A model generated the notes under the pieces. That model saw only the letters and a list, made by a program, of their open reading frames with translations, searched no databases and was not told the DNA's origin. From Chiloscyllium plagiosum (lineage: Eukaryota), in the NCBI RefSeq assembly GCF_004010195.1, contig NC_057719.1:504389-561401 (forward strand): a stretch of 57,013 bases of DNA, given 5' to 3'. The first letter of the stretch is position 1, and every line of letters starts with the position of its first letter. Made by a program: the position numbers and the translations under genes. Positions 4,131-56,002 of this stretch are shown in pieces.

Positions 4131-4281
4131 CTTCAGCATCTGTACCTCAGGCTCGAGCTTTAAGCTGAATCCTGTCAGGACCTTTGGCTTGTTTTGAAAC
4201 TGTACCAGTGAGCTGTGTAATGACAGAATCTGTTCCTTCATTGATTCCAGTGCAGTGAAGGCCATTCTCAGTGAAGTCTCT
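4131..4281 (-). CDS. Nesprin-like helical exon ([41 protein letters not shown]...MLK)
   Basis: 151 nt, phase 2/0, AAG|GTAAAT donor, amphipathic-helix pattern. Confidence 0.8.
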
Positions 4282-7200
4282 CTGTAACAAACACAGGATC
4301 AATATGGCAACATTGGCCATGGACAATTAATTCATCTCTAGCTAGGTCTCACATTTACTGCCCATCTTTAAATGTCTCAGAGGGCAGTTAAGAGTCAACT
4401 CCATTGTGTGGCTCTGGAGTCACATGTGTGTGTCAGACCATGTAAGATGTCCCTCCCTAAAGGACAGTAGTGAATCAGATGGGTTTTAATGACAATTGTC
4501 ACCATTAGACCAGTTGTTTAATTCCAGCATCTACCAAGGTGGGGTTTGAACCCAGACCCTCAGGACATTAGGCTGGGGTACTGGATTACAGCTCAGTGAC
4601 ATTACACACCCCCACCACCTACCCTCTCCTCATCATAGTTGTCTACCACTTGGCAGTCAGTCTCTCATTCGTACAAGTGGGGAGATGTTGCTGTCGTGGT
4701 AATGTCACTCGGCTAGTGAGGTCCAGTCTCGTAGTCTAAAGCCAGGGGTTCAAATCCCATCTGCCCGAGCTACAACCAAAGTACTGAGTAATTGCAGTTC
4801 TGAAAAGGGGCCACTTGACCCTTGGAGGGCCGAAGGGCCCGTTCCTGTGCTGTATTGACCTGAAACATTAACTCAGATTTCTCTCCATAGTTGCTGCCAG
4901 ACCTGCTGAGCTTTTCCAGCAATTTCTATTTTTGTTTCTGATTTACAGCAACCACAGTTCTTTCGGTTTTTATTCAGTAACTGCTGCTTGCTTTGACATT
5001 TCAGGGAAAGTTGGTGAACGTCAACGTCCTGGACATTGTGGAGAGGTTGATCTGCTCCATTATATTGTATTTCCAGATGTGTATTTTACCTGGTTCTCCA
5101 GGACTAAGAATGGCTTCCTCCACTGGCATTACCCAGATATGACGGAGCATGTTGGTAATGTCATGGTGTGGAGACCCTTGCTAGATTTACTTTATTTTTC
5201 TCTTTTTTTTTGGTGAAACTATTTGTGAGGTTAGTGGTGAAGTCTGAACAGCTGCATGTTTTAAAAGAAGAGACAAACACAGGCGTCTGCAGTTGGTGGC
5301 TGGTCTGGAAGATAATGCAACTTTGTCACCATCTAAAGGACCCTGTGGACAATAGGGCATTGGGTGTTACCAGGCCCAGGGCAGGCATCTGGTTGGACGC
5401 TGAATTGGTCGGCCAACCACAGGGAACGCTGATTAAAAAGGAAGGGATACTGATTCTGATTGGCTTTGGCAGGTGTGGAGCGATGCTGGAATCTCCGAGA
5501 TTAGCTGCTGTGTTTTCTCTCTCTCGGGTTTTCTGTCCACTTTAAGAATCAGAGTCAAAGAGGTGTACAGCATGGAAACAGACCCTTCGGACCATACTGA
5601 CCAGATATCCTAATCTAATCTAGTCCCATTTGCCAGCACTTGGCCCATATCCCTCTGAACCTTTCCTATTCATACACCCATCAGATGCCTTTTAAATATT
5701 GTAATTGTACCAGCCTCCACCACTTCCTCTGGCAGCTCATTCCATAATTGTTGAATGTTCTGAGGAAGGAATCCCAGTCTGTATGAAATAAGTAAATAAT
5801 TCTGGAAGAATTCCAAAATTGTTCACATTCACCAGTGACTTTGAAGTTAGCTATACGATTTGCAACACAGCAAAATTAAAATATTCCCTCAAAATTGCCC
5901 ACCCATTTCCTCACCAGACTACAAATAGAATCATAGAATCCCGACAAGGTAGAAGTATGCCATTTGGCCCATCGATTCTACACCAACCCCCAAATAGCCT
6001 GGGAATAGCTCATTAAACAAGAGCTGCATGAAGGCTTCCATCCATTGTTTGAAACTGTTTAACTGAACTGACAAATTACAATTCTTTTATCGTCTTTCAA
6101 TTTATCCCTTAACTGGGTCTGTCTGTCTGTGTCTGAGTGGGGATGTATGCTCATAGAAGATTGGATTTAAATCATGGATATTTAAAATACTTTGGAATTC
6201 AGATTTGTACTCTAAAATTACAGTACAATTAAAAAATCTGTTAGTTTTTTTGAAGTTAGAAACTTGGAGTCCAAGATCCATTATGTTCGACTCAGGTTCG
6301 ATTCCAGCCTCAGTCGACTGTCTGTGTGGAGTTTGTACACTCTCCCCCTGTCTGAGTGGGTTTCCTCTGGGTGCTCCAGTTTCCTTCCACAGTCCAAAGG
6401 TGTGCAGGTCAGGTGGATTGGCCGTGGGAATTAGAAGGTTACAGGGATACGGTAGGGGGATGGGTCTGTTTGGGATGCTCTTTGGGGGTTGGTGTAGAAT
6501 CGATGGGCCAAATGGCATACTTCTACCTTGTCGGGATTCTATGATTCTATTTGTAGTCTGGTGAGGAAACGGGTGGGCAATTTTGAGGGAATATTTTAAT
6601 TTTGCTGTGTTGCAAATCCAGTTGATAGGAAGGCTTATTTGGTTTGGCTTGCTATCCCTGGGTCCTAACACTGGAATAGTAATCCAGACATCGAGAATAA
6701 TGCTCTGGGGACATGGTTCAAATCCCACTGTGAAGCCGAGGAATTTAATAAATCAATTAATGAATCTGGAGTTGAATGCTCATGTCAATGAAACTATTGT
6801 TTCAAGCTGTGAAACCCAAATGATTCACTAATCTGCCATCCTTACTAGCTCTGGCCTGCATGTGACTCCACAGCAACATGTGACTCCAGAGACACAGAAG
6901 AGGACCTTTGGAAAGGATTTCCTGACACTCCAGCCCCTAGATAGCAGAGAGCTGCTTTCACAACTTTAATGAGATTAACACAACCAACCATCCCCTCATC
7001 CTCTGGGTATCACTGTCACACAGATTGTACACTTTCCTAGTTATTTAGCTGAATTGGCCACTTCTTCACAAGCTACCTCAAAATCTGCTAACAATTCCTC
7101 ACTGCTTATCTTAGGAAATAGTAAGTCATCAATCTTAAACCTTACAGGACAGTATACTGAATATCCAGTACCTTTCAGAAATCTCATTCCCTGTCTTTAC

Positions 7201-10200
7201 GGTGTGGTCCTGTCTTTCAACGTCTGCCATGCTTCGACCTTCCTCCTCTCGAGTCTCTTTACCTTGCTGTGCCCTTTCACTGGGATCCACCAAGTCCAAA
7301 GTCATAATGTCAGCAAACTCCTAGGGAAAGAAACAGGACACATCCAACACTTTCAAATCCTGCACTGAGATAGGTTAAGGGTGAGAGGGGAAAGATATAA
7401 AAGAGACCTAAGGGGCAACTTTTTCACACAGAGGGTGGTACGTGTATGTAATGAGCTGCCAGAGGATGTGGTGGAGGCTGGTACAAGTGCAACATTTAAG
7501 AGGCATTTGGATGGGTATATGAATAGGAAGGGTTTGGAGGGATATGGGCCGGGTGCTGGTAGGTAGGACTAGATTGGTTTGGGATATCTGGTCGGCATGG
7601 ACAGGTTGGACCGAAGGGTCTGTTTCCATGCTGTACATCTCTATGACCCTATGACTCTATGAAATCACAAGTTCCTAGAAGGATTATTGTCAGTTTAAAT
7701 AGACTGAAGTCAGGGGACTGACCCTTCAGGGTGATGGTTCAGGTATAAACATGGGTTGAAATGACAACAGAGTCAATAATCTCTTCTGAAACATCAGAGG
7801 CAGTTTCTGTTTAGAATTGCTAAGTGTCTTACTGAGACACTGTTCACGATGTCTCATTGAAGATAAGCTTATTTTTATAAACAGAAAAGAAGGGAGGGCA
7901 TCAATTTGCCCCCCAGAGCCATCTGGTGACCAGAGTTTGAAATTACCTTGTGACTGTTTACATATCAAAACTGAATGGGAGATACAGGTACTGCCATTCA
8001 CAATGGGAAACATTGTCTCAAAAATGTCATCAAAATCTCTGACAACAAGAAATACAACTTACAGGAAATAATTAAATAGAAAGTATTTAAAACATATCTA
8101 CATAATTTACAGAAGAAGACTAGTTTAAACAGAAAGCTTCATTTCTCTTTAACTTTAGCAAGTATTTGATTGGTTAAGAGTACAGTAAGGATACCTGTTC
8201 AGTGCTGTGCACTGGTTTCCCTGAGTCCTTCCTCGTTGGATCATCAGTCAAGTTACTGCGTTCTAAATATTCCATTTGAGATTGGGAAAAATCAGCAAGC
8301 GGCCAAGTCACAGTCGTCGCAGACTCCTTTCCCGTCAATTCACCTTCATCTCGTGGTTCAAGGTCTTCATTCAGTGTTCTGACAAGTCTTGCTGCAGAAC
8401 CAGCTGACTGATTTCTCTCTGCATTTGAAGAGCAGCTCACTGATTGGGCAGAATTTTCCATTTCTTTGGAACTCTGAGGGATGTGAATTCTGGGAGGGAA
8501 CGCATCTCCTTCTGGGGTGGCAGTCTGATCGGCTCTGATTTGAAAAACTGGTGCTGACTCAGCAGAAGCCTCCTTTACTTGCTCCACCTGGCTCAAAGGC
8601 TCTCCCTCAAACTGCCCTGACAATCCAGGTTCAAGGGTAACATCCACTTCAGGGGAAATCATTTCTCCTGACGGAATGATTGCCTGGACACTACGCTGGC
8701 ATTCAGGACCCAGGGGCTGCACACCTGGGGGATTGAGCTCAGCAGGTTGGTGTCTGCGTGAGCCAGCTCTGCCTGTCTGCTCCTGTTCACTCACAGCATC
8801 CTGCGTATACTGAACAAAACAAGATTGTTGTGCTGGTTCAGAATTCTCCCGCAGCAGAGCAACAGCCTGCTGTCTCTCAGTCCAACCTTCTGGTTCAGAA
8901 AGAGCATGCTCAGGATTCCCTGGGTCACCAGTCTGTTCATGTGCCCACAGTTTCATTCCTTCCCTGTCCAATGAATCCACATTGTTTTGGGTCATGGTCT
9001 GCGTTGCTCCGGTTACAGACATTTCTGCAGGTGGGGTGTGGCCTTCACTTTGCTCACTGATGGGTAATCGGTCAGTATCACCTCTCGGGAGGCCATATGC
9101 CTCATCTTGATCAGTCTTTGCTCCTATGTTGGGAGGAGAAGATACCTTTCCACAACAGCCTCCTGTCTGTTCCTGTTCCCCCTGTATCGCTCCTTCCCAG
9201 TTCACTGAATCTTCCATTTTGCGAGGATCAGTCTGATCTGCTCCAATCAGAATCTCCTCTACAGACAGAGTGAGATCATCACCCCATTTTCTACCAGTCA
9301 TGTTCTCACGGATCTCTGCACTTTGGCCCTCAGATGCTCTCACCAATAATACAGTATTCTGAGCTACTGCATTCTCAGTTTGTTTCTCCACAGACAGTGG
9401 CTCTGTCACTGCACCATGAGAGGCATCACTCACTAGGCCATCAGCCTTCTCTCTCTCACTCAGATCCTTGCCTGACACTCCTGCTGAATCCTCCATGACT
9501 GTAGCATCACCCTGAAGTTCTCCACTCAGACTCATTGTCATCAAAGGGGCAGAAGATCCTGTGCTTGTCCTATCGCCATGTTCTCTCTCCCTCAGATGTT
9601 CTGGAGAGTCCACTCCAAGTGGGCCCAATGTCTGCACTTTCCCAGAATGAAGCTCTGTCCCTGATTGAGAAATCTTCTCTGATTCAAGGACGTTCAGCTC
9701 TTTCTCCATCACACACTTTCTTCCAGACTGAGCAGAATCTTCTGCTGTCAGGTCAGCATTGGTTCCTTCTTCACTGACAGAGTCTGGGAGTAACTGCCCA
9801 GAATCATCTTCTGGAAGGTCACACACCTTAATGTCTCCACTGAGGGCCAGTTCTGACAACTGACCAGAACCTGCCATTGTTGGATGGTCACATCTGTCTG
9901 TTCTAACTGGAGATGATGTTGATAATTGGGTGGGATCTTGTCTTGGCTGATTTCCAGTCAGCTCCCTTTCACTCACAGACACTGTTAGTGATTTCTGAGT
10001 GCCCTCCACAGGTAGGCCATAAGCCTGGTTCACCCCACTGGAATACTCTTTTGGAAGTTGATCTGTACTTTCTGTTGCTGCAGTGATTGTCTGCTCTTGG
10101 TCAAACACAAAGTCTGGGTTATCATGAGTAGGTAATTCTCCCATTAGGGTTTGGCTTCCGTTACTCTGAGATACTTCGACTAACTGAGGAAAGGCCTGCG

Positions 10201-13200
10201 TGAGTAGGCCATAACTGTGGTCTTGTTCACTCAGGGACCGCACAATGTTCTTTGCTACAGCTGTGTAGGTCTGGGTTTGTTCACTGATGGGTAATCGGTC
10301 AGTATCATTGCTCGGGAGGCCATATGCCTCATCTTGAACAGCCATTGCTCCTATTTTGGGAGAAAGAGATACCTTTCCCCAACGGCCTCCTGTCAGATTC
10401 TGTTCTCCCTGTATTACTCCTTCCCAGTTCAATGAATCTTTCATTTTGCGGGGATTGGTCTGATCTGCTCTAATCAGAATCTTCTCTACAGACAGAGTAA
10501 GATCGTCACCCCATTTTCCACTAGTCATACTCTCTTGGATGTCCTCACGTTGTCCCTGAGATTGTTTCTCCTCAGACAGTGGCTCTGCTGCTTCAGGAGT
10601 GGCATCACTCACTTGGCCATCAGCCTGAGGTCTCTCACTCAAATCCCCTCCTGACCCTACTGGTGAATCCTCCATGACTGTACTGTCACCCTGATTTTGT
10701 CCACTCAGACTCATTGTCATCAAAGGGGCAGAAGGCCTTGTGGTTAACCTCTCGCCATGTTCTCCCTCCCTCAGGCTTTCTGTAGCATCCACTCCAAGTG
10801 GGCCCAATGCCTGCACTTTCCCAGAATGAAGCTCTGTCCCTGATTGTGAAATCCTCTCTGATTCAAGGACGTTCAGCTCTTTCTCCATCACACACTCTCT
10901 TCCAGACTGAGCAGAATCTTCTACTGTCAGGTCAGCATTGGTTCCTTCTTCACTGACAGAGTCGGGGGGTAACTGCCCAGAATCCTCTCCTGGGAGGTCA
11001 CAAACTTCAATGTATCCACTGAGGGCCAGTTCTGACAACTGACCAGAACCTGCCACTATTGGATGGTCACATCTGTCTGTTCTAACTGGAGATGATGTTG
11101 ATAATTGGGTGGGATCTTGTCTTGATTGATTTCCAGTCAGCTCCCTTTCACTCACAGACACTGTTAGTGATTTCTGAGTGCCCTCCACAGGTAGGCCATA
11201 AGCCTGGTTCACCCCACTGGAATACTCTTTTGGAAGTTGATCTGTACTTCCTGTTGCTGCAGTGATTGTCTGCTCTTGGTCAAACACAAAGTCTGGGTTA
11301 TCATGAGTAGGTAATTCTCCCATTAGGGTTTGGCTTCCATTACTCTGAGATACTTCGACTAACTGAGGAAAGGCCTGCGTGAGTAGGCCATAACTGTGGT
11401 CTTGTTCACTCAGGGACTGCACAATGTTCTTTGCTACAGCTGTGTAGGTCTGGGTTTGTTCGCTGATGGGTAATCGGTCAGTATCACCTCTCGGGAGGCC
11501 ATATGCCTCATCTTGAACAGCCATTACTCCTATGTTGGGAGGAGTAGATACCTTTCCCCAATGGCCTCCTGTCAGTTCCTGTTCCCCCTGTATCGCTCCT
11601 TCCCAGTTCACTGAATCTTTCATTTTGCAGGGATCAGTCTGATCTGCTCCAATCAGAATCTCCTCTACTGGCAGAGTAAGATCATCATCCCATTTTCTAC
11701 CAGTCATTGTCTCACGGATCTCTGCACTTTGGCCCTCAGATGCTCTCACCAATAATACAGTATTCTGAGCTACTGCATTCTCAGTTTGTTTCTCCACAGA
11801 CAGTGGCTCTGTCACTGCACCATGAGAGGCATCACTCACTAGGCCATCAGCCTTCTCTCTCTCACTCAGATCCTTGCCTGACACTCCTGCTGAATCCTCC
11901 ATGACTGTAGCATCACCCTGAAGTTCTCCACTCAGACTCATTGTCATCAAAGGGGCAGAAGATCCTGTGCTTGTCCTATCGCCATGTTCTCTCTCCCTCA
12001 GATGTTCTGGAGAGTCCACTCCAAGTGGGCCCAATGTCTGCACTTTCCCAGAATGAAGCTCTGTCCCTGATTGAGAAATCTTCTCTGATTCAAGGACGTT
12101 CAGCTCTTTCTCCATCACACACTTTCTTCCAGACTGAGCAGAATCTTCTGCTGTCAGGTCAGCATTGGTTCCTTCTTCACTGACAGAGTCTGGGAGTAAC
12201 TGCCCAGAATCATCTTCTGGAAGGTCACACACCTTAATGTCTCCACTGAGGGCCAGTTCTGACAACTGACCAGAACCTGCCATTGTTGGATGGTCACATC
12301 TGTCTGTTCTAACTGGAGATGATGTTGATAATTGGGTGGGATCTTGTCTTGGCTGATTTCCAGTCAGCTCCCTTTCACTCACAGACACTGTTGGTGATTT
12401 CTGAGTGCCCTCCACAGGTAGGCCATAAGCCTGGTTCACCCCACTGGAATACTCTTTTGGAAGTTGATCTGTACTTTCTGTTGCTGCAGTGATTGTCTGC
12501 TCTTGGTCAAACACAAAGTCTGGGTTATCATGAGTAGGTAATTCTCCCATTAGGGTTTGGCTTCCGTTACTCTGAGATACTTCGACTAACTGAGGAAAGG
12601 CCTGCGTGAGTAGGCCATAACTGTGGTCTTGTTCACTCAGGGACTGCACAATGTTCTTTGCTACAGCCGTGTAGGTCTGGGTTTGTGCACTGATGGGTAA
12701 TCGGTCAGTATCATCGCTCGGGAGGCCATATGCCTCATCTTGAACAGCCATTGCTCTTAACTTGGAAGGAGTAGATACCTTTCTCCAACAGCCTCCTGTC
12801 AGCTCCTGTTCCCCCTCTATCGCTCCTTCCCAGTTCACTGAATCTTTCATTTTGCAGGGATCAGTCTGATCTGCTCCCAGCAGAATCTCCTCTACTGGCA
12901 GAGTGAGATCATCACCCCATTTTCTACCAGTCATGTTATCTTGGATCTCCTCAGGTTGGCCCTCAATTTGTTTCTCCTCAGTCAGTGACTCTGTCACTGC
13001 ACCAGGAGAGACATCACTCACTAGGCCATCAGCCTTCTCTCTCTCACTCAGATCCTTGCCTGACACTCCTGCTGAATCCTCCATGACTGTACTATTACCC
13101 TGAAGTTGTCCACTCAGACTCATTGTCATCAAAGGAACAGAAGATCCTGTGAATGTCCTATCGCCATGTTCTCTCTCCCTCAGATGTTCTGTAGAGACCA

Positions 13201-16200
13201 CTCCAAGTGGACTCAGTGTCTGCACTTTCCCAGAATGAAGCTCTGTCCCTGATTGCGAAATCTTCTCTAATTCAAGGACGTTCAGTTCTTTCTCCATCAC
13301 ACACTCTCTTCCAGACTGAGCAGAATCTTCTACTGTCAGGTCAGCATTGGTTCCTTCTTCACTGACAGAGTCTGGGAATAACTGCCCAGAATCCTCTCCT
13401 GGGAGGTCACACACTTTAATGTCTCCACTGAGGGCCAGTTCTGACAACTGACCAGAACCTGCCATTGTTGGATGGTCACATCTGTCTGTTCTAACTGGAG
13501 ATGATGTTGATAATTGGGTGGGATCTTGTCTTGGCTGATTTCCAGTCAGCTCCCTTTCACTCACAGACACTGTTGGTGATTTCTGAGTGCCCTCCACAGG
13601 TAGGCCATAAGCCTGGTTCACCCCACTGGAATACTTTTTTGGAAGTTGATCTGTACTTTCTGTTTCTGCAGTGATTGTCTGCTCTTGGTCAAACACAAAG
13701 TCTGGGTTATCATGAGTAGGTAATTCTCCCATTAGGGTTTGGCTTCCGTTACTCTGAGATACTTCGACTAACTGAGGAAAGGCCTGCGTGAGTAGGCCAT
13801 AACTGTGGTCTTGTTCACTCAGGGACTGCACAATGTTCTTTGCTACAGCCGTGTAGGTCTGGGTTTGTTCACTGATGGGTAATCGGTCAGTATCATCGCT
13901 CGGGAGGCCATATGCCTCATCTTGAACAGCCATTGCTCCTATGTTGGGAGGAGTAGATACCTTTCCCCAATGGCCTCCTGTCAGTTCATGCTCCCCCTGT
14001 TTCGATCCTTCCCAGTTCACCGAATCTTTCATTCTGCAGGGATCAGTCTGATCTGCTCTAATCAGAATCTCCTCTACCGACAGAGTAAGATCATCACCCC
14101 ATTTTCCACGGGTCATACTTTCTTGGATCTCCTCATGTTGGCCCTCAGATGATCTCACCAAACATACAGTATTCTGAGCTACTGCATTCTCAGTTTGTTT
14201 CTCCACAGACAGTAGCTCTGTCACTGCACCAGGAGAGGCATCACTCACTAGGCCATCAGCCTTATCTCTCTCACTCAGATCCTTGCCTGACACTCCTGCT
14301 GAATCCTCCATGACTGTAGCATCACCCTGGAGTTGTCCACTCGGACTCATTGTCATCAAAGGAACAGAAGATCCTGTGCTTGTCCTATCGCCATGTTCTC
14401 TCTCCCTCAGATGTTCTGTAGAGACCACTCCAAGTGGACTCAGTGTCTGCACTTTCCCAGAATGAAGCTCTGTCCCTGATTGCGAAATCTTCTCTGATTC
14501 AAGGAGGTTCAGCTCTTTCTCCATCACACACTTTCTTCCAGACTGAGCAGCATCCTCTGCTGTCAGGTCAGCATTGGTTCCTTCTTCACAGACAGAGTCT
14601 GGGAGTAACTGCCCAGAATCCTCTCCTGGGAGGTCACAAACTTCAATGTCTCCACTGAGGGCCAGTTCTGACAACTGACCAGAACCTGCCATTGTTGGAT
14701 GGTCACATCTGTCTGTTCTAACTGGAGATGATGTTGATAATTGTGTGGGACCTCGTCTTGATTGATTTCCGGTCAACTCCCTTTCACTCACAGACACTGG
14801 TGATTTCTGACTGCCGTCCTCAAGTAGGCCGTAACCCTGGTCTATTCCACTGGAATACTCTTTTGGAAGTTGAACTGTACTTTCTGTTGCTGCAGTGATT
14901 GTCTGCTCTTGGTCAAACACAAATTCTGGGTTGTCATGACTGGGTAACTCTCTCATTAGGGTTTGGTTTCCTTCAATATGATACTCTCCTGTCTGCTCTT
15001 GACCCCTCTGGATCGCTCCATTGAGGTTTACTGAACTTTTCATTGCGCAGGGATCTGTCTGATCTGCTCCAATCAGCGATTCTTTGTCACACGACGTGAG
15101 GCTTTCACCCTGTTTTCTACCAAATAAACTCTCTTGAGTGTCACTCACATCTGATTGGTCCTGAACTGCTACTGGCCATTCCACAGTGGCCTGTACTGTT
15201 GGTTTGTCAAGTTGTTCCTCTTCACTCAGAGACACTTCCACACTCGCAGGAATATCTTCACCCTGATCTCTTCCTGTCAAACTGAGCTGTTCAGTGAGAA
15301 ACCCTTTGCTGAACTCAGCAATTGCCTTTGTTCCTCGATGCGCAGCCTGCTGTTTCTTACTGAGAGCCATGACTGTCACTTGAGCAGGTTTCTCTGTTCG
15401 AGCTGTGTCCAAGGCTTTCTGCCCTGTCTTCTCTTTCTGTGACTGAACCAAGCAGTCACGTGTTTGGAGGCAACCCTGATGCTGCTTACTGGGAAATGCT
15501 GACGCTAACAGTGCTGACCCACCTCTGTGTGTGGTCTCCCCTTGGCCTTGCCCACTCAGTGAATCTTCCCCCAAGTGAGTGATGTCCACGTTTGGGAACA
15601 TTTCCATCTCACATTTTCCCATCGGGAGATATTTGGCCAGTTGGCCAGAATCGTCGGCAAGACCTTGACTTCTGGAAGAAATTGCCATTAAGTCAGTGTG
15701 ACTGCCCATTGCCTGGGCAGGGCCCTGATCCTCACCACTCGAAGACTGCATTTGCAATTGAGTAAAGTTCAAACCAGGAGCCTCAGTGTCCCCTCTCTGG
15801 GACATGGAGTAATGCTGACCAGTACGTTCTCCTTTCACAGTAGCAGGAGGCTCTCCATCCGTCAGACAGTGTGTCACTGATTGCTGACAGTCCCCTCTTT
15901 GTAACCAGTCACCCTGGAGTTTCCTACTCTGAGTCTCTTGGACAGATTGAGTTTGGCCTTCTCTGCCCAGGTCATCAATTCTAGTCCACTCTGTCCATGG
16001 TCCAGGGATTTCACTTGCTTCATTATCGCCCAGAATGTTTCTGTTGAGTTCTGCCGCTCCAAGTTGTGTGGAGGCCTGGCCTACTTTGGTCACAGGTTGG
16101 GCTGAATTCTCACCCCCTGGATCGTCAGCCTGTTCTGTTCGTCTTTTTGCCCATCCAGATGGTGCCTTCCTTGTTGCATCCTCAGTCAGATCCATTTCCC

Positions 16201-19200
16201 TTTGACACTCACTCTTCAATTCCCTGTTAAATTTACAATGCACTTGTCAGTCTGAGAACATGCATCTGCAAATTCTTGCAAAACCCCAGTAGGAGAAGAT
16301 ACAGTGAGGAAACGTGGTTTGGAAGGTTCTTTGGTGTTAACACCTTTTACACCAAAGAACTTTTCAAACCACGTTGCTGGGTGATTATAAAAACACATTT
16401 TGAATCAAGCCACAGCAAGAGATAATAGGTGAGGTGACCAAAAGCTTTGCCAGTGAGGTGGATTTTTATGCAGTGTTTTAAACAAGGACATTGAGGTAGA
16501 GATAGGGAGATGAGAGAGGGGACACTGAGATTGGAGTCCAGGCAGCTGAAGGTACAGCCAGCAATGCTGCAGCGATAGGAATCAAGAACAAACAGGAAGC
16601 TGGAATTATAGGAGCAGAGAGATCTCAGAGGGTAGAGGCAATTACAGAGATAGGGGGAGGGGGGAAAGGCCATGAAAGAATGTAAGAATAAGGAAGAACA
16701 TTTTAAAGCAGAGGTATCAGAGCCACAGAAGGTCAGCAAGCACATGATTAATATTATGAAGAGAACTTGTTTCAGATGAGCTCAGGTTTACAGAGAGTGG
16801 AAAGTGGTAGAGCATCCAGTGGAACACTGGAATAGCTGCATCAGGAGGGAACTGAGACATGGATGAGGGTTTCAGCTGTGGGTTGAGCTGAGGCAGGAGC
16901 ACTGAGGGTCAATGTTGTGGAGGTGGAAATGGTTAATCCTGCTCTCGGAGGAGAGATGTTGCATAGCCACTTCCAATGTAACATCAGTCAGTACCTCCTG
17001 GGAAAAATCCCCTCCTCCCATCAGGGGCTGATGAATATTAATGCAACCAACTAACCCCTTCCTCCCCACACCGATCCAATTGTGAGTGATCCTGCCAAAG
17101 AACTGGAACACCCTACAGCAGTGTGGGGAAAGGGACCAGTTCAGATTTCTCCATGTTGTTGAGAAATGGAGCTCATTCTGCAGCTAAGACTGTGGCCAGG
17201 ATTTAAGGCCAACACCATCCTTGCCTGATACAAACTCTCTGCACTGCTTCCCTTCGTTCCCTTCCTTCTCTCTTCTCTCACCCAATGGTGCTTGAGGCAA
17301 ACAAAGCATATGCTTATCGCTGGATTTTCCTGGAATAGACCCCGAGCCTATGGCCAACCTTTCTTTAAACGAAGACATTAATCTGCTTCTGCATGTTTCA
17401 TCAATTTAATCAGTAGGTTAGCAAAACAGTAGGACTCAAAACCTGGGGGAATTTGGAATTCACTTTTAAATGATTGTAAGAAAAAGTGAAGTCTCAGCAA
17501 AAGTGACCACGATGCTGTTGGATTATTGGAAGACACCCAGCGCCCTTACATGTCTACATGTGACTCCTGCTCTCACAACAATAAAATACTTAATTAAAAT
17601 ATTCCATTTCTATCAAATCCCCATGAATGGTCATGATTCATGAAGAACCCTCAGTGGAGGTGATTTTAGCATCAGTGCTGACCCTGTCTGTGGTGAGCTG
17701 ACTGGGTCCTGGAACCAGGAAAAACACTTGATGAGCTGTTGCTCCAGGTCAGTCTTACGATCCTCACAGGACTGCAGGGTGGCCTTTATTTCAGCATCAA
17801 CATTGCCATCACAGAGCTCCCTCATCGCTGCCAGGTGTTGTTGGGCTCGGGTCAAACTGCTGCCTTTGGAAAAGAACATCTAGGAAAAAACAGAAGAATC
17901 TTTGGGATAAAGAGCTACATTTCAACTCTCACAAGAGCTCAGCATCAGACCAGGAAGAGATGCAGGTATTTTTATTTATTTACAGAATATGGCCATCACT
18001 TTGGTCAACATTTATTGTCCATCTCCAATTGTCCTTGAACTGAATGCCTAACTAGGAACACTTCAGATGACTATTATGAGTCAAGCCACATTATCATGAT
18101 CTCAAGTCATCTGTAGGCCAGACTTGGTAAGGACAGTAGATTTCTTTTCCCTCCAGGACATGAGTGAACCAGATGAGTTTTTAGGACAATCCACAGTGGC
18201 CATCATTATACTGGATTTGTCGTCATTATGACCACATGGTCATCATTATACCCAATCTTAATTCCAGACGTGTATTGAATTTCAATGCTGCCTTTGACCA
18301 TGGTGGGATTACTATTCCCATCTCTAAATTATTTGCCTGAGATGCATTAGCCCAGTAACATTTCGAAAACTCCACCAAACAGATTGCTATCAAAGAGCGA
18401 CTCAGTCCCCAGGTGGGGATGGAATTACCTGGTGCCCATCAAGAAGGGACTGCACATGAGAGCTGTCCATTCCCTGATGGACCTCACACTCCTGAAGAGC
18501 CGCGTTGAATTTATTCTGCTCCACCTCAAACTTCATCCGATGAAGATGCGCATCCACCAATGATTGCACCTTCTGAAAACCAAACCAAAACCTGCCTCAA
18601 TATCACTCTTACCAGAAACAGGCCAATCGATGAACCTCCTCACTCACACCTTCTTCAATGAACTGCATCAACATAGCTTTCTCTCCCTTTCTCCCACAGG
18701 GACTTAGCCAACTCCTCCTTAAACACATCTTTGCTGTTCATTGTAACCATTCCCAGTGGTAACTAGCTCCACATTCTCCCAATTCTCAGGATAAAGGCAT
18801 GTCTCATGAATTCGCAGCTGAATTCACTGGAATTGCCTTACACTGCTGGACCCCAGTTTTGTCTCCCTTCCCAATGAGAACACTTCCTATGCATCTACCT
18901 CATTGAACCTTCGCACAATTTTTAAATCCTCCTCAGCATTCTCTTTTCTTGAGAGAAGAGCCCCGGCCTGCTGAGGCTCTCCTCATAATTATATTAGGAT
19001 GGGTTTCATTTTTTAAAATCTTGGTTTGCAAAGTCTCCAATGCGTCTGTATCTTTTTATAACATGGAATATGGAACTGTGCACAGTGCCCAAAGGAAGGC
19101 CCATAAACAAGATCCTCGTTTTTATTCTCCCTCTCTTGATCTTCCATTAAAGTTTTGCAAATATTTTGCCTTCAAGCTGCATCCTCGCCATCACAATCTT

Positions 19201-22200
19201 TGTGTGCGAGTGTAGGTTACGAGGCCCTCCTTTGAAGCTTTAGCTGTGGCTTAATGGGTCACTATCTTGATTCCAGATTGGATGTTTGCAAGTTCAACTC
19301 CCTCTCCACAAACCTGACCAGGGATTGGAGGCTGATACTCCTGTTGCAGGACTGAAGGAGTGCTGCACTGCTGAAGGTGTGAGCTGTCTCACGATAGATG
19401 TTAAACTCAAAACCTTTCAGGGCTCTCTTCTGAAGACGAGACAATATTCAACCTTAACCAAGTGAAAACAGAACATCTGCTCATTATCATATGGCCCTTT
19501 GTGGAATTCTATTTAGCAATCACATTTCCTACATTTGAACTCCAAAAAATATTTCACTGGCTGTCACATGCTTTGAGGAGAAAGTGAGGACTGCAGATGC
19601 TGGAGATCAGAACTGAAAATGTGTTGCTGGAAAAGCGCAGCAGGTCAGGCAGCATCCAGGGAACAGGAGAATCGACGTTTCAGGACTAAGCCCTTCTTCA
19701 GGATTCCTGAAGAAGGGCTTATGCCCGAAACGTCGATTCTCCTGTTCCCTGGATGCTGCCTGACCTGCTGCGCTTTTCCAGCAACACATTTTCAGCTCTG
19801 TCACATGCTTTGGACATGCTGAGGTTATCCAAGGTGCCATAACAATGCAAGTTATTTCTGTCCAGTGCATAATCATTTGGCTCTATGTTCGAGGTGATTG
19901 GTGGTAAAGGCATGAACCTGAATTGCTGAGCCGCGCTATTCGGCCCACACAGGGTCCGACATCGGCACACCGGCCGCAATTGTCTCACCTCCCAGTTTCG
20001 GCAGAGCTCTGCCCGCATTTCCTCAACAATCTGCTTCTTCTGAGGGGTTAACATCATTTTGATTTTATCTGTTGCTTCAAGAAAATGTTCAATGATTCCA
20101 GAATCAAAGCTCCTGATTGTTTCCTGTGAGGAACACAATATTAATCAGTCTCCGTTTACTGCCATTACATTGCCATAGCTTTTCAAGGGAGAAAGTTCTA
20201 GATTGTCACTGCCCTTCCTGTGAAGAAATGCTTCCTGATGTCGCCCCTAAACAGCCTGTCTCCATATTGACGGTTCAGTATCCTTGCTCCAGACTCCCTC
20301 TCACCCGAGGCAATACCTTCTCTTGGTCAGCCCAGTCAACTCCTTCAATTGTAGAGTCTATAGAAACATCTTTTGGCCTGAAATTATTCAATCAGACTGC
20401 CTCTTAATCTTCTATATGTGAGGAAATTCAATAAATTCAATAAAAGCTCCCTATTTAAACCCCTTAGTTCCAGAATTTCTAGCACCAATATTTCTCCTCT
20501 GTGGTTGTATGGAGTCGGAACAGAAGGTGCCCAACCTGTGACCCAGCCCATGGCCAATGGAGACCTGCAGGTGAGTGGCTACCTGGTGCTTCACAATGAG
20601 TTCCTCTGGGGACCCTCTGTCCTCGAGAAACTGCATGGCCCCTCCAATGCAGGCTTCTATCCTTCTCTTCGATTCTTCAAAGTCCCGTTTGACATCAACT
20701 TCTGACACTGTGCGCTCACCCACCTGGGCTGGCTCGGCACACGGCACGTCACTGCCCACCTAGGCCAGAGAGACGGAGGGTTAGGCACTGTTTCTCTCAT
20801 TAACACACACACACACACACACAGACACACATACACACACACACACACACACACAGACACACACACACACACACAGACACACAGACACACAATTCATGGA
20901 ACTACAGTTTCAGAGGAATATTCGTGTCATAAAACAAAGGTCAAGAGGACGTTTTATCAAAGTGATCTGAATAATCAGAGGCCATGATTAAGTAAATGTG
21001 GAGAAACACTTCCCAGTGGCAAATGATGGGTAACTCTTGAATATGTTCAAGAAAGAGATTGTTGGTTTTTCGATTTTTAAGGCATCAAGGATACAGAGAG
21101 AAAGCAGGAAGATGGCATTGGGATAGAATATCAGCCATGAATGGCCTACTCTTGCTCATTATTCTGATGTAGCCAGAAGGCACAGATTTAAAGTGACTGG
21201 CCAAAGAACTAGGGGTGAGATGGAATAAAAACCGTGAGTTCTTATGAATTGGAACATACAGGTGGTGGGAGCAGGTTAAATATGAGCTTTCAAATAGGAG
21301 TTTAATTTGTAAGTAAAGAGGAATTGCAATTAGAACATAAGAACTAGGAGCAGGAGTAGGCCGTCTCGTCCTTCGTGCCTGCTCTGCCACCTCAGTAAGA
21401 TCATGGCTGGTCTTTTCGTGGACTCAGATCCATTTATCCACGCTCTTACCATATCTCTTAACTTCTGTAATGTTCTAAAAATATGTTCCTTAGCTTTAAA
21501 AATGTTCACTGAAGTAGGGGCAACTATTTCGCTGGGCAGGGAATTCCACAGAATCACAACCCTCTGGGTGATGAAGTTCCCCCTCAATTCAGTCCTAAAC
21601 CTGCTCCCCCTAACTTTGAGGCTGTGCCCTCTTGTCTTAGTTTCACTCTCCAGTGGAAACATCCTCTCCACTTCTACCTTATCTGTTCCCTTCATAATTT
21701 TATATGTTTGTATAAGATTCCCCCTCATTCTTCTGAATTCCAATGAATATAATCCCAGTCTACGCAGCCTCTCCTCATACGGCAACCCCCTCAACTTCCA
21801 GAACCAACCCAGTGAACCCCCTCTGCACCCCCTCCCGGGCCAGTACATCCTTTCTCAAGTAAGGAGACCAAAACTGCACACAGTACTCCAGGTGTGGCCT
21901 CACCAGCACCCTTAGGGCTGCAACATAACCTCCCTGCTTTTAAACTCCATCCCTTTAGTAATGAAGGACAAAATTCTATTTTCCTTTTCTAATTACTTGT
22001 TGTACCTGCAAACCAACCTTCTGTGATTCATGTACAAAGACACCCAGGTCCCTTTGCACAGCAGCATGTAATTCTAAGGGGAAAGAGAAGTAGGTGAGTG
22101 GAATGACACCTCTTTCAGTATGATCGACTAAACCTCCTCATGAATCAGATTTAAAAGCTATTTGCTTCCCCATCGTCAAACTGGAATGTGCTGCCTGAGA

Positions 22201-25200
22201 GACGCACTCCCTCATGAATGCTGGAGACACTCAGACTGAAGACCAGCCAGAGAGAGTGTCACTGCGAGGCCAGGCCTCTGGATTACTGATGATGAAGCCT
22301 CTGGATTCCCGGCAAAACCTCTGAATTCCCTGTCCAGGACCTGGTGGCATCCTCAGTGCTTGGGAGCCTCCTGTGAAGTGCTTCTGTGGTGTTTCCTCCG
22401 GCATTTATAGTGGCCTGTCCCTGCCGCTTCCGGTTGTCAGTTTCAGCTGTCCGCTGTAGTGGCCGGTATATTGGGTCCAGGTCGATGTGTTTGTTGATGG
22501 AGTTTGTGGATGAGTGCAATGCTTCTAGGAATTCCCTGGCTGTTCTTTGTTTGGCTTGCCCTATAATGGTAGTGTTGTCCCAGTCGAATTCATGTTGCTT
22601 GTCGTCTGCGTGTGTGGCTACTAAGGATAGCTGGTCGTGTCGTTTCGTGGCTAGTTGATGTTCATGGATACGGATTGTTTGCTGTCTTCCTGTTTGTCCT
22701 ATATAGCGTTTTGTGCAGTCCTTGCATGGGATTTTGTACACTACATTAGTTTTGCTCATGAACAACTCACCAGAACGAAGGACCTGATACCCAGCATGAG
22801 CAAAACAAATATAGTGTACAAAATCCCATGCAAGGACTGCACAAAACACTACATAGGACAAACAGGAAGACAGCTAATGATCCGTATCCATGAACATCAA
22901 CTAGCCACGAAACGCCACGACCAGCTATCCTTAGTAGCCACACACGCAGACGACAAGCAACATGAATTCGACTGGGACAACACTACCATTATAGGGCAAG
23001 CCAAACAAAGAACAGCCAGGGAATTCTGAGAAGCATGGCACTCATCCACAAACTCCATCAACAAACACATCCACCTGGACCCAATATACCGGCCACTACA
23101 GCGGACAGCTGAAACTGACAACCGGAAGCGGCAGGGACAGGCCACTATAAATGCCGGAGGAAACACCACAGAAGTGGTTCACAGGAGGCTCCCAAGCACT
23201 GAGAGTGTCACTGCGAGGCCAGGCCTCTGGATTACTGATGATCAAGCCTCTGGATTCCCAGCAAAACCTCTGAATTCCCTGTCCAGGACCTGGGTTCCTG
23301 GCCCCTGCCTCTGGTGGGGAAATGGTCATCATTATACCTGATTTTAATTCCAGATTTTTGTTGGATTTGAATGTTGCCTTCTGCCAGGGTAGGATTACCA
23401 TCTCTATCCCTAAACTGTTTGGCTGGGATTCATTAGTGCAGGAACATTTCCACGACTCCACCAAACACAGAGCGATTCAGTCCCCAGGTGGGGATGGAAT
23501 TACCTGGTGCCCATCAAGAAGGGACTGCACGTGGGAGCTGTCCATTCCCTGATGGACCTCACACTCCTGAAGAGCTGCGTTGAATTTATTCTGCTCCACC
23601 TCAAACTTCATCCGATGAAGATGCGCATCCACCAATGATTGCACGTTCTGAAAAACAAACCAAAACCTGCCTCAATATCACTCTTACCAGAAACAGGCCA
23701 ATCCATGAACCTTTGAGGAGAAAGTGAGGTCTGCAGATGCTGGAGATCAGAGCTGAAAAATGTGTTACTGGAAAAGCGCAGCAGGTCAGGCAGCATCCAG
23801 GGAACAGGAGAATCGACGTTTCGGGCATAAGCCCTTCTTCAGAAGAAGGGCTTATGCCCGAAACGTCGATTCTCCTGTTCCCTGGATGCTGCCTGACCTG
23901 CTGCGCTTTTCCAGCAACACATTTCCAATCCATGAACTGCCTCACTCACACCTTCTTCAATGAACTGCATCAACATAGCTTTCTCTCCCTTTCTCCCACA
24001 GGGACTTAGCCAACTCCTCCTTAAACACATCTTTGCTGTTCATTGTAACCATTCCCAGTGGTAACTAGCTCCACATTCTTCCAATTCTCAGGATAAAGAC
24101 ATGTCTCATGAATTCGCAGCTGAATTTACTGGGATTGCCTTACACTTCTGGACCCCAGTTTTGTCTTCCCTTCCCAATGAGAACACTTCCTATGCATCTA
24201 CCTCATTGAACCTTCGCACAATTCTTAAATCCTCCTCAGCATTCTCTTTTCTTGAGAGAAGAGCCCCAGCCTGCTGAGGCTCTCCTCATAATTATATTAG
24301 GATGGGTTTCATTTTTTAAAATCTTGGTTTGCAAAGTCTCCAATGCGTCTGTATCTTTTTATAACATGGAATATGGAACTGTGCACAGTGCCCCATGGAT
24401 GGCCTATAAACAAGATCCTCGTTTTTATTCTCCCTCTCTTGATCTTCCATTAAAGTTTTGCAAATATTTTGCCTTCAAGCTGCATCCTCGCCATCACATC
24501 CTTTGTGTGTGAGTGTAGATTACCAGGCCCTCCCTTGAGGCTTTAGCTGTGGCTCAATAGGTCACTCTCTTGATTCTGAATTGAACGTTTGCAGGTTCAA
24601 CTCCCTCTCCACAAACCTGACCGGGAATTCAAGGCTGATGTTCCCGATGCTGTACTGCTGAAGGTGTAAGCTGTCTCACGATAGTTGTTAAACTTAAAAA
24701 CCTTCAGGGCTCTCTTTTGAAGAAGAGGGAATATTCACCCTTTACCAAGTGAAAACAGAACATCTGCTCATAATCACATTGCCCTTTGTGGAATCCTACT
24801 GTGTACAAATTAGCATCACATTTCCTACATTTGAACTTCAAAAAATACTTCATTGGCGTGGCCACTGTTGGAATATTGCGTGCAATTCTGGTCTCCTTCC
24901 TATCGGAAAGATGTTGTGAAGGGTTCAGAAAAGATTTACAAGGATGTTGCCAGGGTTGGAGGATTTGAGCTACAGGGAGAAGCCGAACAGGCTGGGACTG
25001 TTTTCCCTGGAGCGTCGGAGGCTGAGGGGTGACCTCATAGAGATTTACCAAATTATGAATCGCATGGATAGGGTAGATAGACAAAGTCTTTTCCCTGGGG
25101 TCGGGGAGTCCAGAACTAGAGGGCATAGGTTTAGGGTGAGGGGGGAAAGATATAAAAGAGACCTAAGGGGCAATGTTTTCACGCAGAGGGTGGTATGTGT

Positions 25201-28200
25201 ATGGCATCAGCTGCCAGAGGAAGTCATGGAGGCTGGTGCAATTGCAACATTTAAGAGGCATTTGGATGGGTGTATGAATAGGAAGGGTTTGGAGGGATAT
25301 GGGCCGGGTGCTGGCAAGTGGGACTAGATTGGGTTGGGATATCTGATCAGCATGGACGGATTGGACAGAAGGGTCTGTTTCCATGCTGTACATCTCTATG
25401 ATTCTATGACATGCTTTGGACATGCTGAGGTTATCCAAGGCGCCATAACAATGCAAGTTATTTCTGTCCAGTGAATAATCAGTTGGCTCTATGTTTGAGG
25501 TGATTGGTGGTAAAGGCGTGAACCTGAATTGCTGAGCCGCGCTATTCGGTCCACACAGGGTCCGACATCGGCACACCGGCCGCAATTGTCTCACCTCCCA
25601 GTTTCGGCAGAGCTCTGCCCGCATTTCCTCAACAATCTGCTTCTTCTGAGGGGTTAACACCATTGTGATTTTATCTGTTGCTTCAAGAAAATGTTCAATG
25701 ATTCCAGAATCAAAGCTCCTGATTGTTTCCTGTGAGGAACACAATATTAATCAGTCTCTGTTTACTGCCATTACATTGCCATAGCTTTTCAAGGGAGAAA
25801 GTTCTAGATTGTCACTGCCCTTCCTGTGAAGAAATGCTTCCTGATGTCGCCCCTAAACAGCCTGTCTCCATATTGACGGTTCAGTATCCTTGCTCCAGAC
25901 TCCCTCTCACCCGAGGCAATACCTTCTCTTGGTCAGCCCAGTCAACTCCTTCAATTGTAGAGTCTATAGGAACATCTTTTGGCCTGAAATTATTCAATCA
26001 GACTGCCTCTTAATCTTCTATATGTGAGGAAATACAATAAATGAATCCTCTGCTCCCTATTTAAACCCCTTAGTTCCAGAATTTCCAGCACCAATATTTC
26101 TCCTCTGTGGTTGTATGGAGTCGGAACAGAAGGTGCCCAACCTGTGACCCAGCCCATGGCCAATGGAGACCTGCAGGTGAGTGGCTACCTGGTGCTTCAC
26201 AATGAGTTCCTCTGGGGACCCTCTGTCCTCGAGGAACTGCATGGCCCCTCCAATGCAAGCTTCTATCCTTCTCTTCGATTCTTCAAAGTCCCGTTTGACA
26301 TCAACTTCTGACACCGTGCGCTCACTCACCTGGGCTGGCTCGGCACACGGCACGTCACTGCCCACCTAGGCCAGAGAGACGGAGGGTTAGGCACTGCTTC
26401 TCTCATTAACACACACACACACACACACACAGACACACACACACAGACACACACACACACACACTCTCTTTCTCTATCTCTCTCTCTCTCTCTCTCTCCA
26501 GGATCTACAATTTCAGAGGGATGTTAGTGTCTTAAAACAAAGGTCAAGAGGACGTTTCATCAAAGTGATCTGAATCATGAGAGGCCGTGATTAAGTAAAT
26601 GTGGAGAAACACTTCCCAGTGGCAAACGATGGGTAACTGTTGAACATGTTCAAGGAAGATTTATTTTTTCATGTTTTAAGGCATCAAGGATACAGAGAGA
26701 AAGCAGGAGGATGGCATTGGGATAGAATATCAGCCGTGAAGGGCCTACTCTTGCTCATTATTCTGATGTAGCCAGAAGGCACAGATTTAAAGTGACTGGC
26801 CAAAGAACTAGGGGTGAGATGGAATAAAAACTGTGAGTTCTTATGAATTGGAACATACAGGTGGTGGGAGCAGGTTAAATATGAGCTTCAAATAGGAGTT
26901 TAATTTGTTTGTAAAAAGGAATCACAATTCTAAGGAGAAAGAAAAGTAAATGAGTGGATTGACACCTCTTTCAGTATGATCGACTAAACCTCCTCGTGAA
27001 TCAGATTTAAAAGCTATTTGCTTCCATCGTCAAACTGGAATGTGCTGCCTGAGGGACGCAGTCCTCATGAATGCTGGAGACACTCAGACTGAAGACCAGC
27101 CAGAGAGAGAGTCCCTTATGTTACTGCTAGACTAGGTGTCTCGAATACTGCTGATTCAGCCACTGGATTACCAGTGCCAGCCTCTGGATTCCCTCTACCA
27201 CGTTGTGGATTGCCGGGTCAGGAACAATGTTTCAAAGAACAGTCACATTGAACTCAAAATATTAACTCTGCTTCTCGCTCCACAGATGTTGCAAGACCTG
27301 ATGAGTTTCATCAACATTTTCCTGGACCAACTCTGGATTTCTGGAGCAGTCATAGAGTCATGGAGATGTACAGCACGGAAACAGACCCTTCAGTCCAACC
27401 TGTCCATGCCAACCAGATATCCCAATCTAATCTAGTCCCATTTGCCAGCACCCAGCCCATATCCTTCCAAACCTTTCCTATTCATATATCCATCCAGATG
27501 CCTTTTAAATGTTGTAATTGTACCAGCCTCCACCACTTCCTCTGGAGCTCATTCCATTCACGTACCACCTTCTGTGTGAAAAAGTTGTCCCTTAGGTCCC
27601 TTTTATATCTTCCCCTCTCACTCTGAACCTATGCCCTCTAGTTCTGGACTCCCCCACCCCAAGTAAAATACCTTATCTATTTACCCTATCCATGCCCCTC
27701 ATGATTTTATAAACCTCTATAAGGTCACCCACTATCCCATCTACCTGCGATTCCACTTTCAAGGAGCTATGAATCTGCACTCCAAGGTCTCTTTGTTCAG
27801 CAACACTCCCTAGTTCCTTACCATTAAGTATATAAGTCCTGCTCTGATTTGCTTTTCCAAAATACAGTACCTCACGTTTATGTAAATTAAACTCCATCTG
27901 CCACTCCACAGTCCTTTGGCGCATCTGTTGTACTTTGAGGTAACCTTCTTCACTGTCCGCTACACCTCCAATTTTGGTGTCATTTGCAAACGTACTAACT
28001 ATACCTCCTATGTTCAAATCCAAATCATTTATAAAAATGAAAAGTAGCATTCCACTGGTCCCAAGCCTCCAGTCTAAAAAGCTACCCTCCACCACCACCC
28101 TCTATCTCCTACCATCGAGCCAGTTCTTTATCCAAATGGTTAGTACCCCCTGTTTTACCTGCAGTCTATGAGACTGGACAGAGGAAACCATAAAAAAGAC

Positions 28201-49793: not shown

Positions 49794-50111
49794 CAGACTA
49801 AACCAATAGCAATCAAACCACCTCCTCCCCTATAACTCTTCATACACCACCTCCGGCCACTGCTTTCTCACTCAACAGTTTCTATTACCCGGACAAAGAT
49901 CCCAGCCATGTCCCAATCCCCAGCCCAATTTCATATTTCTTTGTTGGTAATTCTTGCGAGCAAGGTTCCAGGGTAGCCTGGATTAACAATGCCGGAGCTA
50001 ACAATGTCAGAACAGGCCATTTGGCCCAAATACAATGTCTGGTGTTCATGGTTCATTTGAACCTCCTCCTATCTTTCCACATCTATATCCACCACTCTAA
50101 CTTTCTAATTG

Positions 50112-54225: not shown

Positions 54226-54452
54226 TTTCCCTCACAACAATAAATATTTGCTTTGTTTCTACTCTCGCAAAATCTTTCAGAATTTTAAAGATGTCTGTTT
54301 GGTAGTGCTGTATATCTCTATGACGTTATGGTAACTGCCCCTCCCACACCAGTGTTTACCAAGGGAAAAGTGACACAGCTAGTCTATCCTTTCCTGATAT
54401 GTGAACCCAATCTAAAGATGAAATCTATAACTTGGAGATACATATGCGCAAG

Positions 54453-55366: not shown

Positions 55367-55866
55367 NNNNNNNNNNNNNNNNNNNNNNNNNNNNNNNNNN
55401 NNNNNNNNNNNNNNNNNNNNNNNNNNNNNNNNNNNNNNNNNNNNNNNNNNNNNNNNNNNNNNNNNNNNNNNNNNNNNNNNNNNNNNNNNNNNNNNNNNNN
55501 NNNNNNNNNNNNNNNNNNNNNNNNNNNNNNNNNNNNNNNNNNNNNNNNNNNNNNNNNNNNNNNNNNNNNNNNNNNNNNNNNNNNNNNNNNNNNNNNNNNN
55601 NNNNNNNNNNNNNNNNNNNNNNNNNNNNNNNNNNNNNNNNNNNNNNNNNNNNNNNNNNNNNNNNNNNNNNNNNNNNNNNNNNNNNNNNNNNNNNNNNNNN
55701 NNNNNNNNNNNNNNNNNNNNNNNNNNNNNNNNNNNNNNNNNNNNNNNNNNNNNNNNNNNNNNNNNNNNNNNNNNNNNNNNNNNNNNNNNNNNNNNNNNNN
55801 NNNNNNNNNNNNNNNNNNNNNNNNNNNNNNNNNNNNNNNNNNNNNNNNNNNNNNNNNNNNNNNNNN
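55367..55866. other. Assembly gap (500 N)
   Basis: N run. Confidence 1.
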
Positions 55867-56002
55867 CCAACATGCCCATAATGACTACAGCCCCAAAGTG
55901 ACAACATAACACCCCGACACTGTGAAAGACACTCTTATAGATTCTTCATATCTTATTAAAGGCAATGGTTTACTGTCAGGTTTAAGTGGATTTGACACAG
56001 AC

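Follow-up and report, generated by a model that had tools for sequence, protein, structure and literature searches.

A kilobase-unit coding repeat in one giant exon of a nesprin-2-like shark gene, probably encoding a disordered spacer of variable length

The stretch of DNA analysed here, called the window below, covers 57,013 nucleotides (nt) of the shark Chiloscyllium plagiosum (assembly GCF_004010195.1, contig NC_057719.1, positions 504,389 to 561,401 of the forward strand), and all positions are counted from its first letter. It is vertebrate DNA with many fragments of long interspersed nuclear elements (LINEs) and one gap of 500 N. On its minus strand lies a tandem coding repeat contained in one giant exon of a nesprin-2-like gene. 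We consider it probable that this array encodes a disordered spacer of variable length, whose units are exchanged by unequal crossing-over and gene conversion and in which selection guards only the reading frame. An earlier, sequence-only reading of the same letters had taken the array for a satellite-like repeat built of long/short dimers.

From 16246 to 8177 the minus strand can be read through 2690 codons without a stop. Of the six frames this is the only one open across the array; each of the other five contains 58–146 stops there. Five tandem units, delimited at a conserved motif and numbered in coding order, measure 1011 (U1), 1182 (U2), 1227 (U3), 1179 (U4), and 1227 nt (U5) and are followed by a partial sixth (Table 1). 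Tandem Repeats Finder, with its period limit of 500, did not report the array. The spacings of 1179, 1227, 1182, and 1224 nt given by the sequence-only reading, all multiples of 3, were reproduced exactly with one of eight anchors; two other anchors give 1227 as the last spacing. The equality 1179 + 1227 = 1182 + 1224 = 2406, which that reading had noted, depends on the anchor (others give 1182 + 1227 = 2409), because U4 and U1 carry unrelated 3-nt deletions, and it is partly coincidence. The 213 nt missing at the start of U1 had escaped the earlier account. Upstream, in the 5′ part of the exon, a stretch with 23% identity to the unit over about 275 amino acids (aa) may be a much older copy, a weak match (pairwise E 2e-8 with composition correction off).

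Table 1. Positions of the array units, of the giant exon and of the other exons of the host gene found in the window.
Feature	Position	Strand	Description
Giant coding exon	8195..16223	-	8029 nt (1 nt + 2676 codons), phase 2 to phase 0
U1	14057..15067	-	337 aa, long type, 213 nt missing at start, 3-nt deletion
U2	12875..14056	-	394 aa, short through 45-nt deletion, mosaic
U3	11648..12874	-	409 aa, long
U4	10469..11647	-	393 aa, short; 45-nt and 3-nt deletions; 3′ third diverged (~10470-10817)
U5	9242..10468	-	409 aa, long
Partial sixth unit	9049..9241	-	~64 codons
45-nt ancestral segment of long units	9332..9376	-	flanked by CTGAG direct repeat; lost from U2 and U4
U5/U3 near-identical tract	9304..10238 vs 11710-12644		offset 2406; one base differs
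Possible much older degenerate unit copy	15068..15892	-	in the 5′ part of the exon
Preceding exon	17683..17879	-	197 nt, phase-2 donor; 98% to P0002 (Hemiscyllium model) residues 851-916
Following exon	7172..7320	-	86% to P0004 (C. punctatum) residues 1437-1486; covered in runs X1 and X16
Further downstream rod exon	4131..4292	-	tblastn bounds; 93% to P0004 residues 1483-1536
Three-exon rod module (~152 aa), copy B	18426..20759	-	20759-20583, 20123-19989, 18575-18426
Three-exon rod module, copy A	23501..26365	-	26365-26189, 25729-25595, 23650-23501
Seven calponin-homology (CH) head exons (first four)	28291..42256	-	42256-42194, 40741-40640, 34387-34304, 34203-34108; tblastn bounds
CH-head exons (remaining three)	30103-29897, 29338-29144, 28425-28291	-	tblastn bounds

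The units differ from each other by at least 213 substitutions, 212 of which were scored against an expectation drawn from the mutation spectrum. There were 58 synonymous changes where 58.3 were expected (p = 1.0) and 154 non-synonymous ones, and the ratio of non-synonymous to synonymous rates (dN/dS) in pairwise comparisons of U1–U5, a check proposed with the earlier reading, lies between 0.62 and 1.06: the amino-acid changes between units are neutral. Nonsense changes are absent where 9.3 were expected (P about 9e-5), and all five alignment gaps between units (213, 3, 45, 3, and 45 nt, the two of 45 nt being probably one event) are multiples of three. The frame-preserving selection proposed earlier is therefore upheld, and selection seems to protect the reading frame, not the residues. 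At a greater distance, the exon is 42% identical between C. punctatum (P0004) and Heterodontus (P0007), the corresponding values being 71% in the CH head and 66% in the rod that follows. Under the proposed mechanism, stops and frameshifts would be purged while amino-acid changes drift; only these two classes would be removed, since each unit is a whole number of codons long and leaving out the exon breaks the frame.

The giant exon is bounded by an AG acceptor and a GT donor, and its boundaries match those of shark gene models. When it is joined to the neighbouring exons no stop appears; when it is skipped, the frame shifts and a stop follows within six codons. We infer that it is used constitutively. 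It follows the actin-binding head and the first repeats of the rod and precedes the remainder of the spectrin rod. The CH exons in the window match the Pfam CH family (E 2.7e-14 and 1.3e-3) and CH domains in the PDB, and each of the shark models P0004–P0008 has two CH stretches, as an N-terminal tandem-CH head should. A precomputed PF00435 match is present on model P0009. The rod of the Heterodontus orthologue (P0007), in a part that lies outside the window, is closer to nesprin-2 (PDB 6XF1: E 6.5e-30, 106 bits over 216 aa) than to nesprin-1 (6XF2: E 4e-14, 53.6 bits over 131 aa), the two fragments being unequal in length. A KASH match was found in none of the five shark models scanned (P0004–P0008), and the window itself stops in the rod.

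The 5′ 1124 aa of the frame were searched against 1.84 billion representatives, and six of six matching models came from sharks: Chiloscyllium punctatum, Hemiscyllium ocellatum, Scyliorhinus, Cetorhinus, Heterodontus, and Heptranchias; those of Heterodontus and Heptranchias are named 'nesprin-2-like'. The models of Rhincodon and Carcharodon came from separate searches. Over its unique 5′ part the exon shares 91.6% identity with Hemiscyllium and 67% with the whale shark, values that make a bamboo shark the probable source. Among proteins of up to about 5000 aa, the searches gave no orthologue from a ray, a chimaera, or a bony fish, and a homologue search at 4709–5000 aa gave no match; with this length as the upper limit of the proteins searched, shark-specificity is not claimed. 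By its sequence the host gene is nesprin-2-like; it may be the SYNE2 orthologue or a shark paralogue.

Next to the CH head (28291 to 26365 in the window), the three-exon rod module follows within 40–44 aa in all five shark models that have the module. In mammalian nesprin-2 there are several hundred more rod residues between the CH head and that point, and sharks may lack early spectrin repeats. The module is itself tandemly duplicated (18236–21331 and 23322–26929): the genomic copies are 88–94% alike and their exons differ at 10 of 462 nt. Four copies are present in the Hemiscyllium model, one in four other shark models, and none in two. This is a second amplification in the gene, independent of the array.

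How has the array unit evolved along the different shark lineages? The exon encodes 2676 aa in the window, 2422 in the catshark, 1837 in the basking shark, 1462 in Heptranchias, 1101 in Heterodontus, and 1069 in the C. punctatum model, with five, four, three, one, one, and one unit cores, respectively; the Hemiscyllium and whale shark models have one core each. Copy number across species and a unit tree, here built from 17 cores together with an identity matrix, had been suggested as checks of the repeat. The units group by lineage. All four catshark cores and all three basking-shark cores form groups of their own (each 100/100), and U2–U5 of the window cluster together (93/93). The exception is the terminal U1, which goes with the orthologous first units of Hemiscyllium and C. 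punctatum (95/92). Full cores are 91–96% identical within the catshark and 45–61% identical between orders. The k-mer periods differ as well: a composite 610/639 aa around a 410-aa unit in the catshark, 412 and 245 aa in the basking shark, and 450 aa plus a 17-aa microrepeat in Heptranchias. By these comparisons, the array unit has been expanded, or homogenised, separately in at least three shark orders. Heterodontus has terminal redundancy (a unit and a partial copy), and redundancy of this type is a plausible seed for duplication.

The one-unit models of C. punctatum and the whale shark might be taken to show the ancestral state, a reading that was not accepted. The C. punctatum model is likely a collapse, because sequencing run X16 agrees with its protein at 12 of 12 amino-acid-changing letters (15 listed letters tested) yet holds several unit types, the short one included. 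The whale-shark model lies on a contig of 7996 nt. In the Hemiscyllium model (P0002) the last 10 residues (window ~13770–13865) come from a different frame of unit 2; a short internal GT-AG splice could account for this, or else a patch made in annotation to bridge a break.

S, E, G, Q, T, and D are abundant in the product of the exon, which has a net charge of -244 and a FoldIndex below zero in 79% of windows. AlphaFold gave no confident fold for U3 (mean predicted local distance difference test (pLDDT) 37.4, below 50 for 407 of 409 residues), with one low-confidence helix at residues 244–267 and no beta structure; the alignment behind it is shallow (11 rows, 33 columns invariant across them), and a low pLDDT is then weak evidence of disorder. 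No Pfam stretch on the exon passes on its own, and the ESM Atlas returned no usable match. DUF6808, which reaches 27.3 bits over the whole protein (cut-off 24.4) with no single stretch passing, was taken as an additive repeat artefact. The predictions point to a spacer that is probably disordered and would lie in the force path between actin and the nucleus. At a contour length of roughly 0.36 nm per residue, it might serve as an extensible tether about 1 micrometre in contour length. PMC12846774 describes mammalian nesprin-2G (Nesprin-2 Giant) as a shock absorber acting through spectrin-repeat unfolding, and a long disordered insert would add slack to such a device.

If the residues drift, then we can ask: Does the spacer have any role of its own, or is it neutral bloat whose length merely drifts? 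The neutral amino-acid evolution, the range of exon lengths (1069 to 2676 aa across six models), and the second tandem amplification in the same gene agree with bloat. However, the exon is kept open in seven of eight other shark models, the Carcharodon model being without it, and C. elegans ANC-1 with fewer repeats shows impaired nuclear anchorage (PMC8139857), those repeats being helical. We hold bloat to be a somewhat unlikely account, and between tolerated and tuned length we lean slightly to neutral tolerance.

It is improbable, in our estimate, that the units are functional modules, with binding or phosphorylation motifs or the 244–267 helix, whose number is under selection. Expansion in at least three shark orders, the invariant columns, and the 42% identity still kept between C. 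punctatum and Heterodontus would fit such modules; on the other side stand the neutral changes between units and the missing Pfam and Atlas matches, and the existing terminal redundancy could give recurrent duplication without selection. Likewise doubtful is a titin-PEVK-like entropic spring near the actin-binding end, its length tuned by whole-unit gain and loss across orders and individuals, with long/short pairs as one growth mode. Were it true, the length of a tether between nucleus and cytoskeleton would vary naturally in a vertebrate.

Returning to the disordered spacer, the recombination that would vary its length appears to have left traces in the units. Units two apart had been called near-identical, and this holds for U3 and U5 only: they are 97.6% identical overall and agree at 934 of 935 nt in 9304–10238 (683 + 251 identical nt at offset +2406), with 19 differences in the first 120 nt of the unit and six in its last 90. 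U2/U4 (92.1%) and U1/U3 (90.8%) do not fit the description, and the neighbours U2/U3 are 94.9% identical. Within 963 gap-free columns, 35 informative sites group U3+U5 (13), U1+U4 (7), U1+U2 (6), U2+U4 (5), and other pairs (4), and the nearest neighbour of a unit shifts along its length. In an agreement-run test of six pairs, three were significant at p <= 1e-4, two at 0.01–0.03, and one was not; the U3/U5 run of 82 polymorphic sites was reached in none of 10,000 permutations. Such clustered tracts are what concertedly evolving coding repeats show, and they bear out the unequal exchange or conversion proposed earlier. The U5/U3 tract is a candidate for recent conversion or duplication between these two units. 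U4 is, as had been remarked, visibly diverged at about 10470–10817 (40 differences in 259 nt from U3 or U5).

A 45-nt (15-aa) segment separates the long units, which carry it (further copies at ~11738–11782 and ~14147–14191), from U2 and U4, which lack it, as had been seen earlier; to call it an extra of the long units was mistaken. It stands at the matching place in the models of Hemiscyllium, Rhincodon, C. punctatum, Scyliorhinus, Cetorhinus, and Heptranchias, and is shorter in Heterodontus. Since the orthologous units of six other sharks have it, the long type is ancestral and the short units are deletions. A contig of run X16 (record 11), from organism B, skips 9331–9376, and the short type is therefore older than the split of organisms A and B.

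Is the long-short pair, then, the true unit of duplication, a dimer higher-order repeat with alleles differing by 2406 nt (802 aa)? The strict L-S-L-S-L order over five units (with three long and two short, one of ten orders alternates strictly), the identical gap and five common sites of U2 and U4, the most frequent 12-mer offset of 802 in the protein, the short type in organism B, and the composite catshark period all speak for it. Against it, the short units are less alike than the neighbours U2 and U3, the near-identical tract is shorter than one unit, and U1+U4 and U1+U2 share no fewer sites than U2+U4. The CTGAG microhomology flanking the gap means that the deletion could recur. Only U3/U5 are closer to each other than to their neighbours, as a satellite higher-order repeat demands at every position; with five of 35 sites on U2+U4 the satellite-like dimer finds no support, and the periods of the other sharks (410/412, 610/639, 245, and 450 aa) lend none to protein length polymorphism in 802-aa steps. 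We regard this dimer with considerable doubt. By its unit comparisons, the array is a mosaic that repeated exchange has produced and that keeps a trace of long/short descent; it resembles a dimer repeat only weakly. Misaligned recombination between the 1.2-kb units would gain or lose units and copy tracts; the alternation would be the eroded trace of a 45-nt deletion in two units, older than the sister-species split, on which later conversion was overlaid, that of U3/U5 being the most recent.

Four of 24 listed sequencing runs were examined over one period and the 3′ flank (7100–10275). Runs X1 (organism A) and X16 hold exons only, with zero depth in four of four intron bins at 7736–8159. An X1 contig of 5206 nt departs from the genome at 8194, with equal depth (19.9) on the next exon, and splicing of the giant exon at its 3′ end is strongly indicated. 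In the region 9326–9925, X1 has one unit type only, at depth 22–27 compared with 94–136 on the flanks, and by the tool's warning such dips are no finding. In the DNA run X7 the intron is covered, and U1-type (9985, depth 8.9) and U4-type (9406, depth 9.1) gaps are present; the 3-nt gap of U1 occurs in both X1 and X7, and that of U4 in X7. An internal-start contig reaches depth 26.6 in X7, against 8.8 for unique DNA. A U3/U5-like contig there has depth 22.5 (about 2.5 times single-copy) and two letters foreign to U3/U5, while U1, U2, and U4 of the window differ from it at 11, 10, and 15 sites. An array of several units with these types is thus present outside the assembly as well, and animals seem to differ in which units they carry. 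The concern that the array is an assembly artefact is largely removed by these runs, but its exact count of five is not settled by them: mean depth in X7 is 3.5–4.3 times that of unique DNA, nearer four units than the five assembled, though depth is not copy number.

That the array is real but the U3/U5 near-identity or one unit is consensus mixing or false duplication seems quite improbable: the 934 identical bases, the X7 depth compatible with about four units, the letters of U2/U3/U5 at 9946–9947 absent from X1 and X7 contigs, and a scaffolding gap with an out-of-order exon in the window (see below) would allow it, but U3 and U5 differ at their ends, a U3/U5-like contig exists in X7 at about 2.5-fold depth, 8 kb run without any frameshift, and contigs demonstrate presence, not absence.

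Several observations weigh against the spacer as we describe it. The FoldIndex value is only slightly negative (-0.07), and the structure prediction has the shallow alignment already mentioned. The model of Hemiscyllium ends prematurely within unit 2, and that of Carcharodon is without the exon. The five sites and the 45-nt deletion that unite U2 and U4 make a dimer stage in the history of the array possible. X1 and X16 are labelled 'DNA?' and were taken as RNA from their coverage pattern; the splice joint itself is not among the joints listed, a list dominated by a LINE fragment, and the coverage examined is that of the 3′ end of the exon; and X21, raw single-cell polyA RNA of which about 2% was read, covers none of the exon. 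To these come the X7 depth and the missing letters at 9946–9947.

The literature searched, which leaves out most subscription papers and all supplements, held no description of this exon. Like SYNE2 Nesprin-2 Giant, the shark gene has a tandem CH head and then a spectrin-type rod; unlike it, an acidic repeat exon of 1100–2700 aa stands early in the rod. Human nesprin-2 has only a short linker at this position. The unstructured or weak parts named for mammalian nesprin-2G in PMC12846774 and PMC11844729 are SR20, SR24–25, SR45–46, SR54, and the adaptive domain. C. elegans ANC-1 is a giant nesprin too, and its large tandem repeats have likewise been homogenised in their DNA; the six 903-aa repeats are almost 100% conserved (PMC8139857). 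In contrast to those near-exact repeats, which are predicted to be helical and spectrin-like, the shark units are 400 aa long, 88–98% alike (DNA), mosaic, and without a predicted fold. In Drosophila Msp300-PE (PMC11230431) the tandem repeats, each about 100 aa long, are negatively charged and restricted to a lineage. Lineage restriction and acidity are common to both; however, the Msp300-PE repeats are predicted beta sandwiches in an isoform without CH domains, and no beta structure is predicted in the shark unit.

Among coding repeats, mucins have variable number tandem repeats (VNTRs) in large exons (PMC13345508), and volatile disordered repeats combine similar units with signs of recombination (PMC5100051). 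The shark array is like the former in its large repeat exon and like the latter in its units. It differs in its kilobase-sized unit inside a cytoskeletal tether. Its length may vary between alleles; the X7 depth and the variant combinations in that run, foreign to the window, bear on this. In alpha-satellite higher-order repeats, diverged monomers recur in order, and so they do here; unlike there, only 2.5 periods are present, the short monomers are no closer than neighbours, and the array is protein-coding.

If the spacer is as we propose, disordered inserts of 1000–2700 residues are tolerated in the force path of a vertebrate giant nesprin and have been gained there repeatedly, and the repeat pattern of ANC-1 and Msp300 extends to vertebrates. 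With the shark exons, nature would supply a series of tether lengths in which to ask whether nuclear positioning depends on length. They would also give a clean case of frame-only selection, with amino acids neutral and stops excluded. In practice, the array goes some way to account for the truncated, collapsed, or unnamed state of shark nesprin-2 models in databases. The higher-order-repeat aspect is of modest weight.

The remaining observations concern other parts of the window. Past the N gap (55367–55866), an exon at 56002–56196 on the minus strand matches residues 2378–2442 of Carcharodon nesprin-2-like (65%, E 2e-17); it has the orientation of the CH exons and lies upstream of them, though matching a distal part of the protein, and is probably mis-ordered scaffolding across the gap, or else a tandem paralogue. 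A plus-strand stretch at 4990–5079 weakly resembles the CH exon 34203–34108 of the opposite strand (E 0.003–0.008), possibly as a displaced fragment. A 10-bp tandem repeat of about 91 copies (54453–55366) adjoins the assembly gap, and a degenerate 23/24-bp minisatellite (28457–28752) lies directly upstream of the last CH exon. Decayed LINE reverse-transcriptase elements, which we take to be CR1-like, occupy 36600–39640, 50100–54230, and many shorter pieces, and fragments resembling short interspersed nuclear elements are found throughout the introns.

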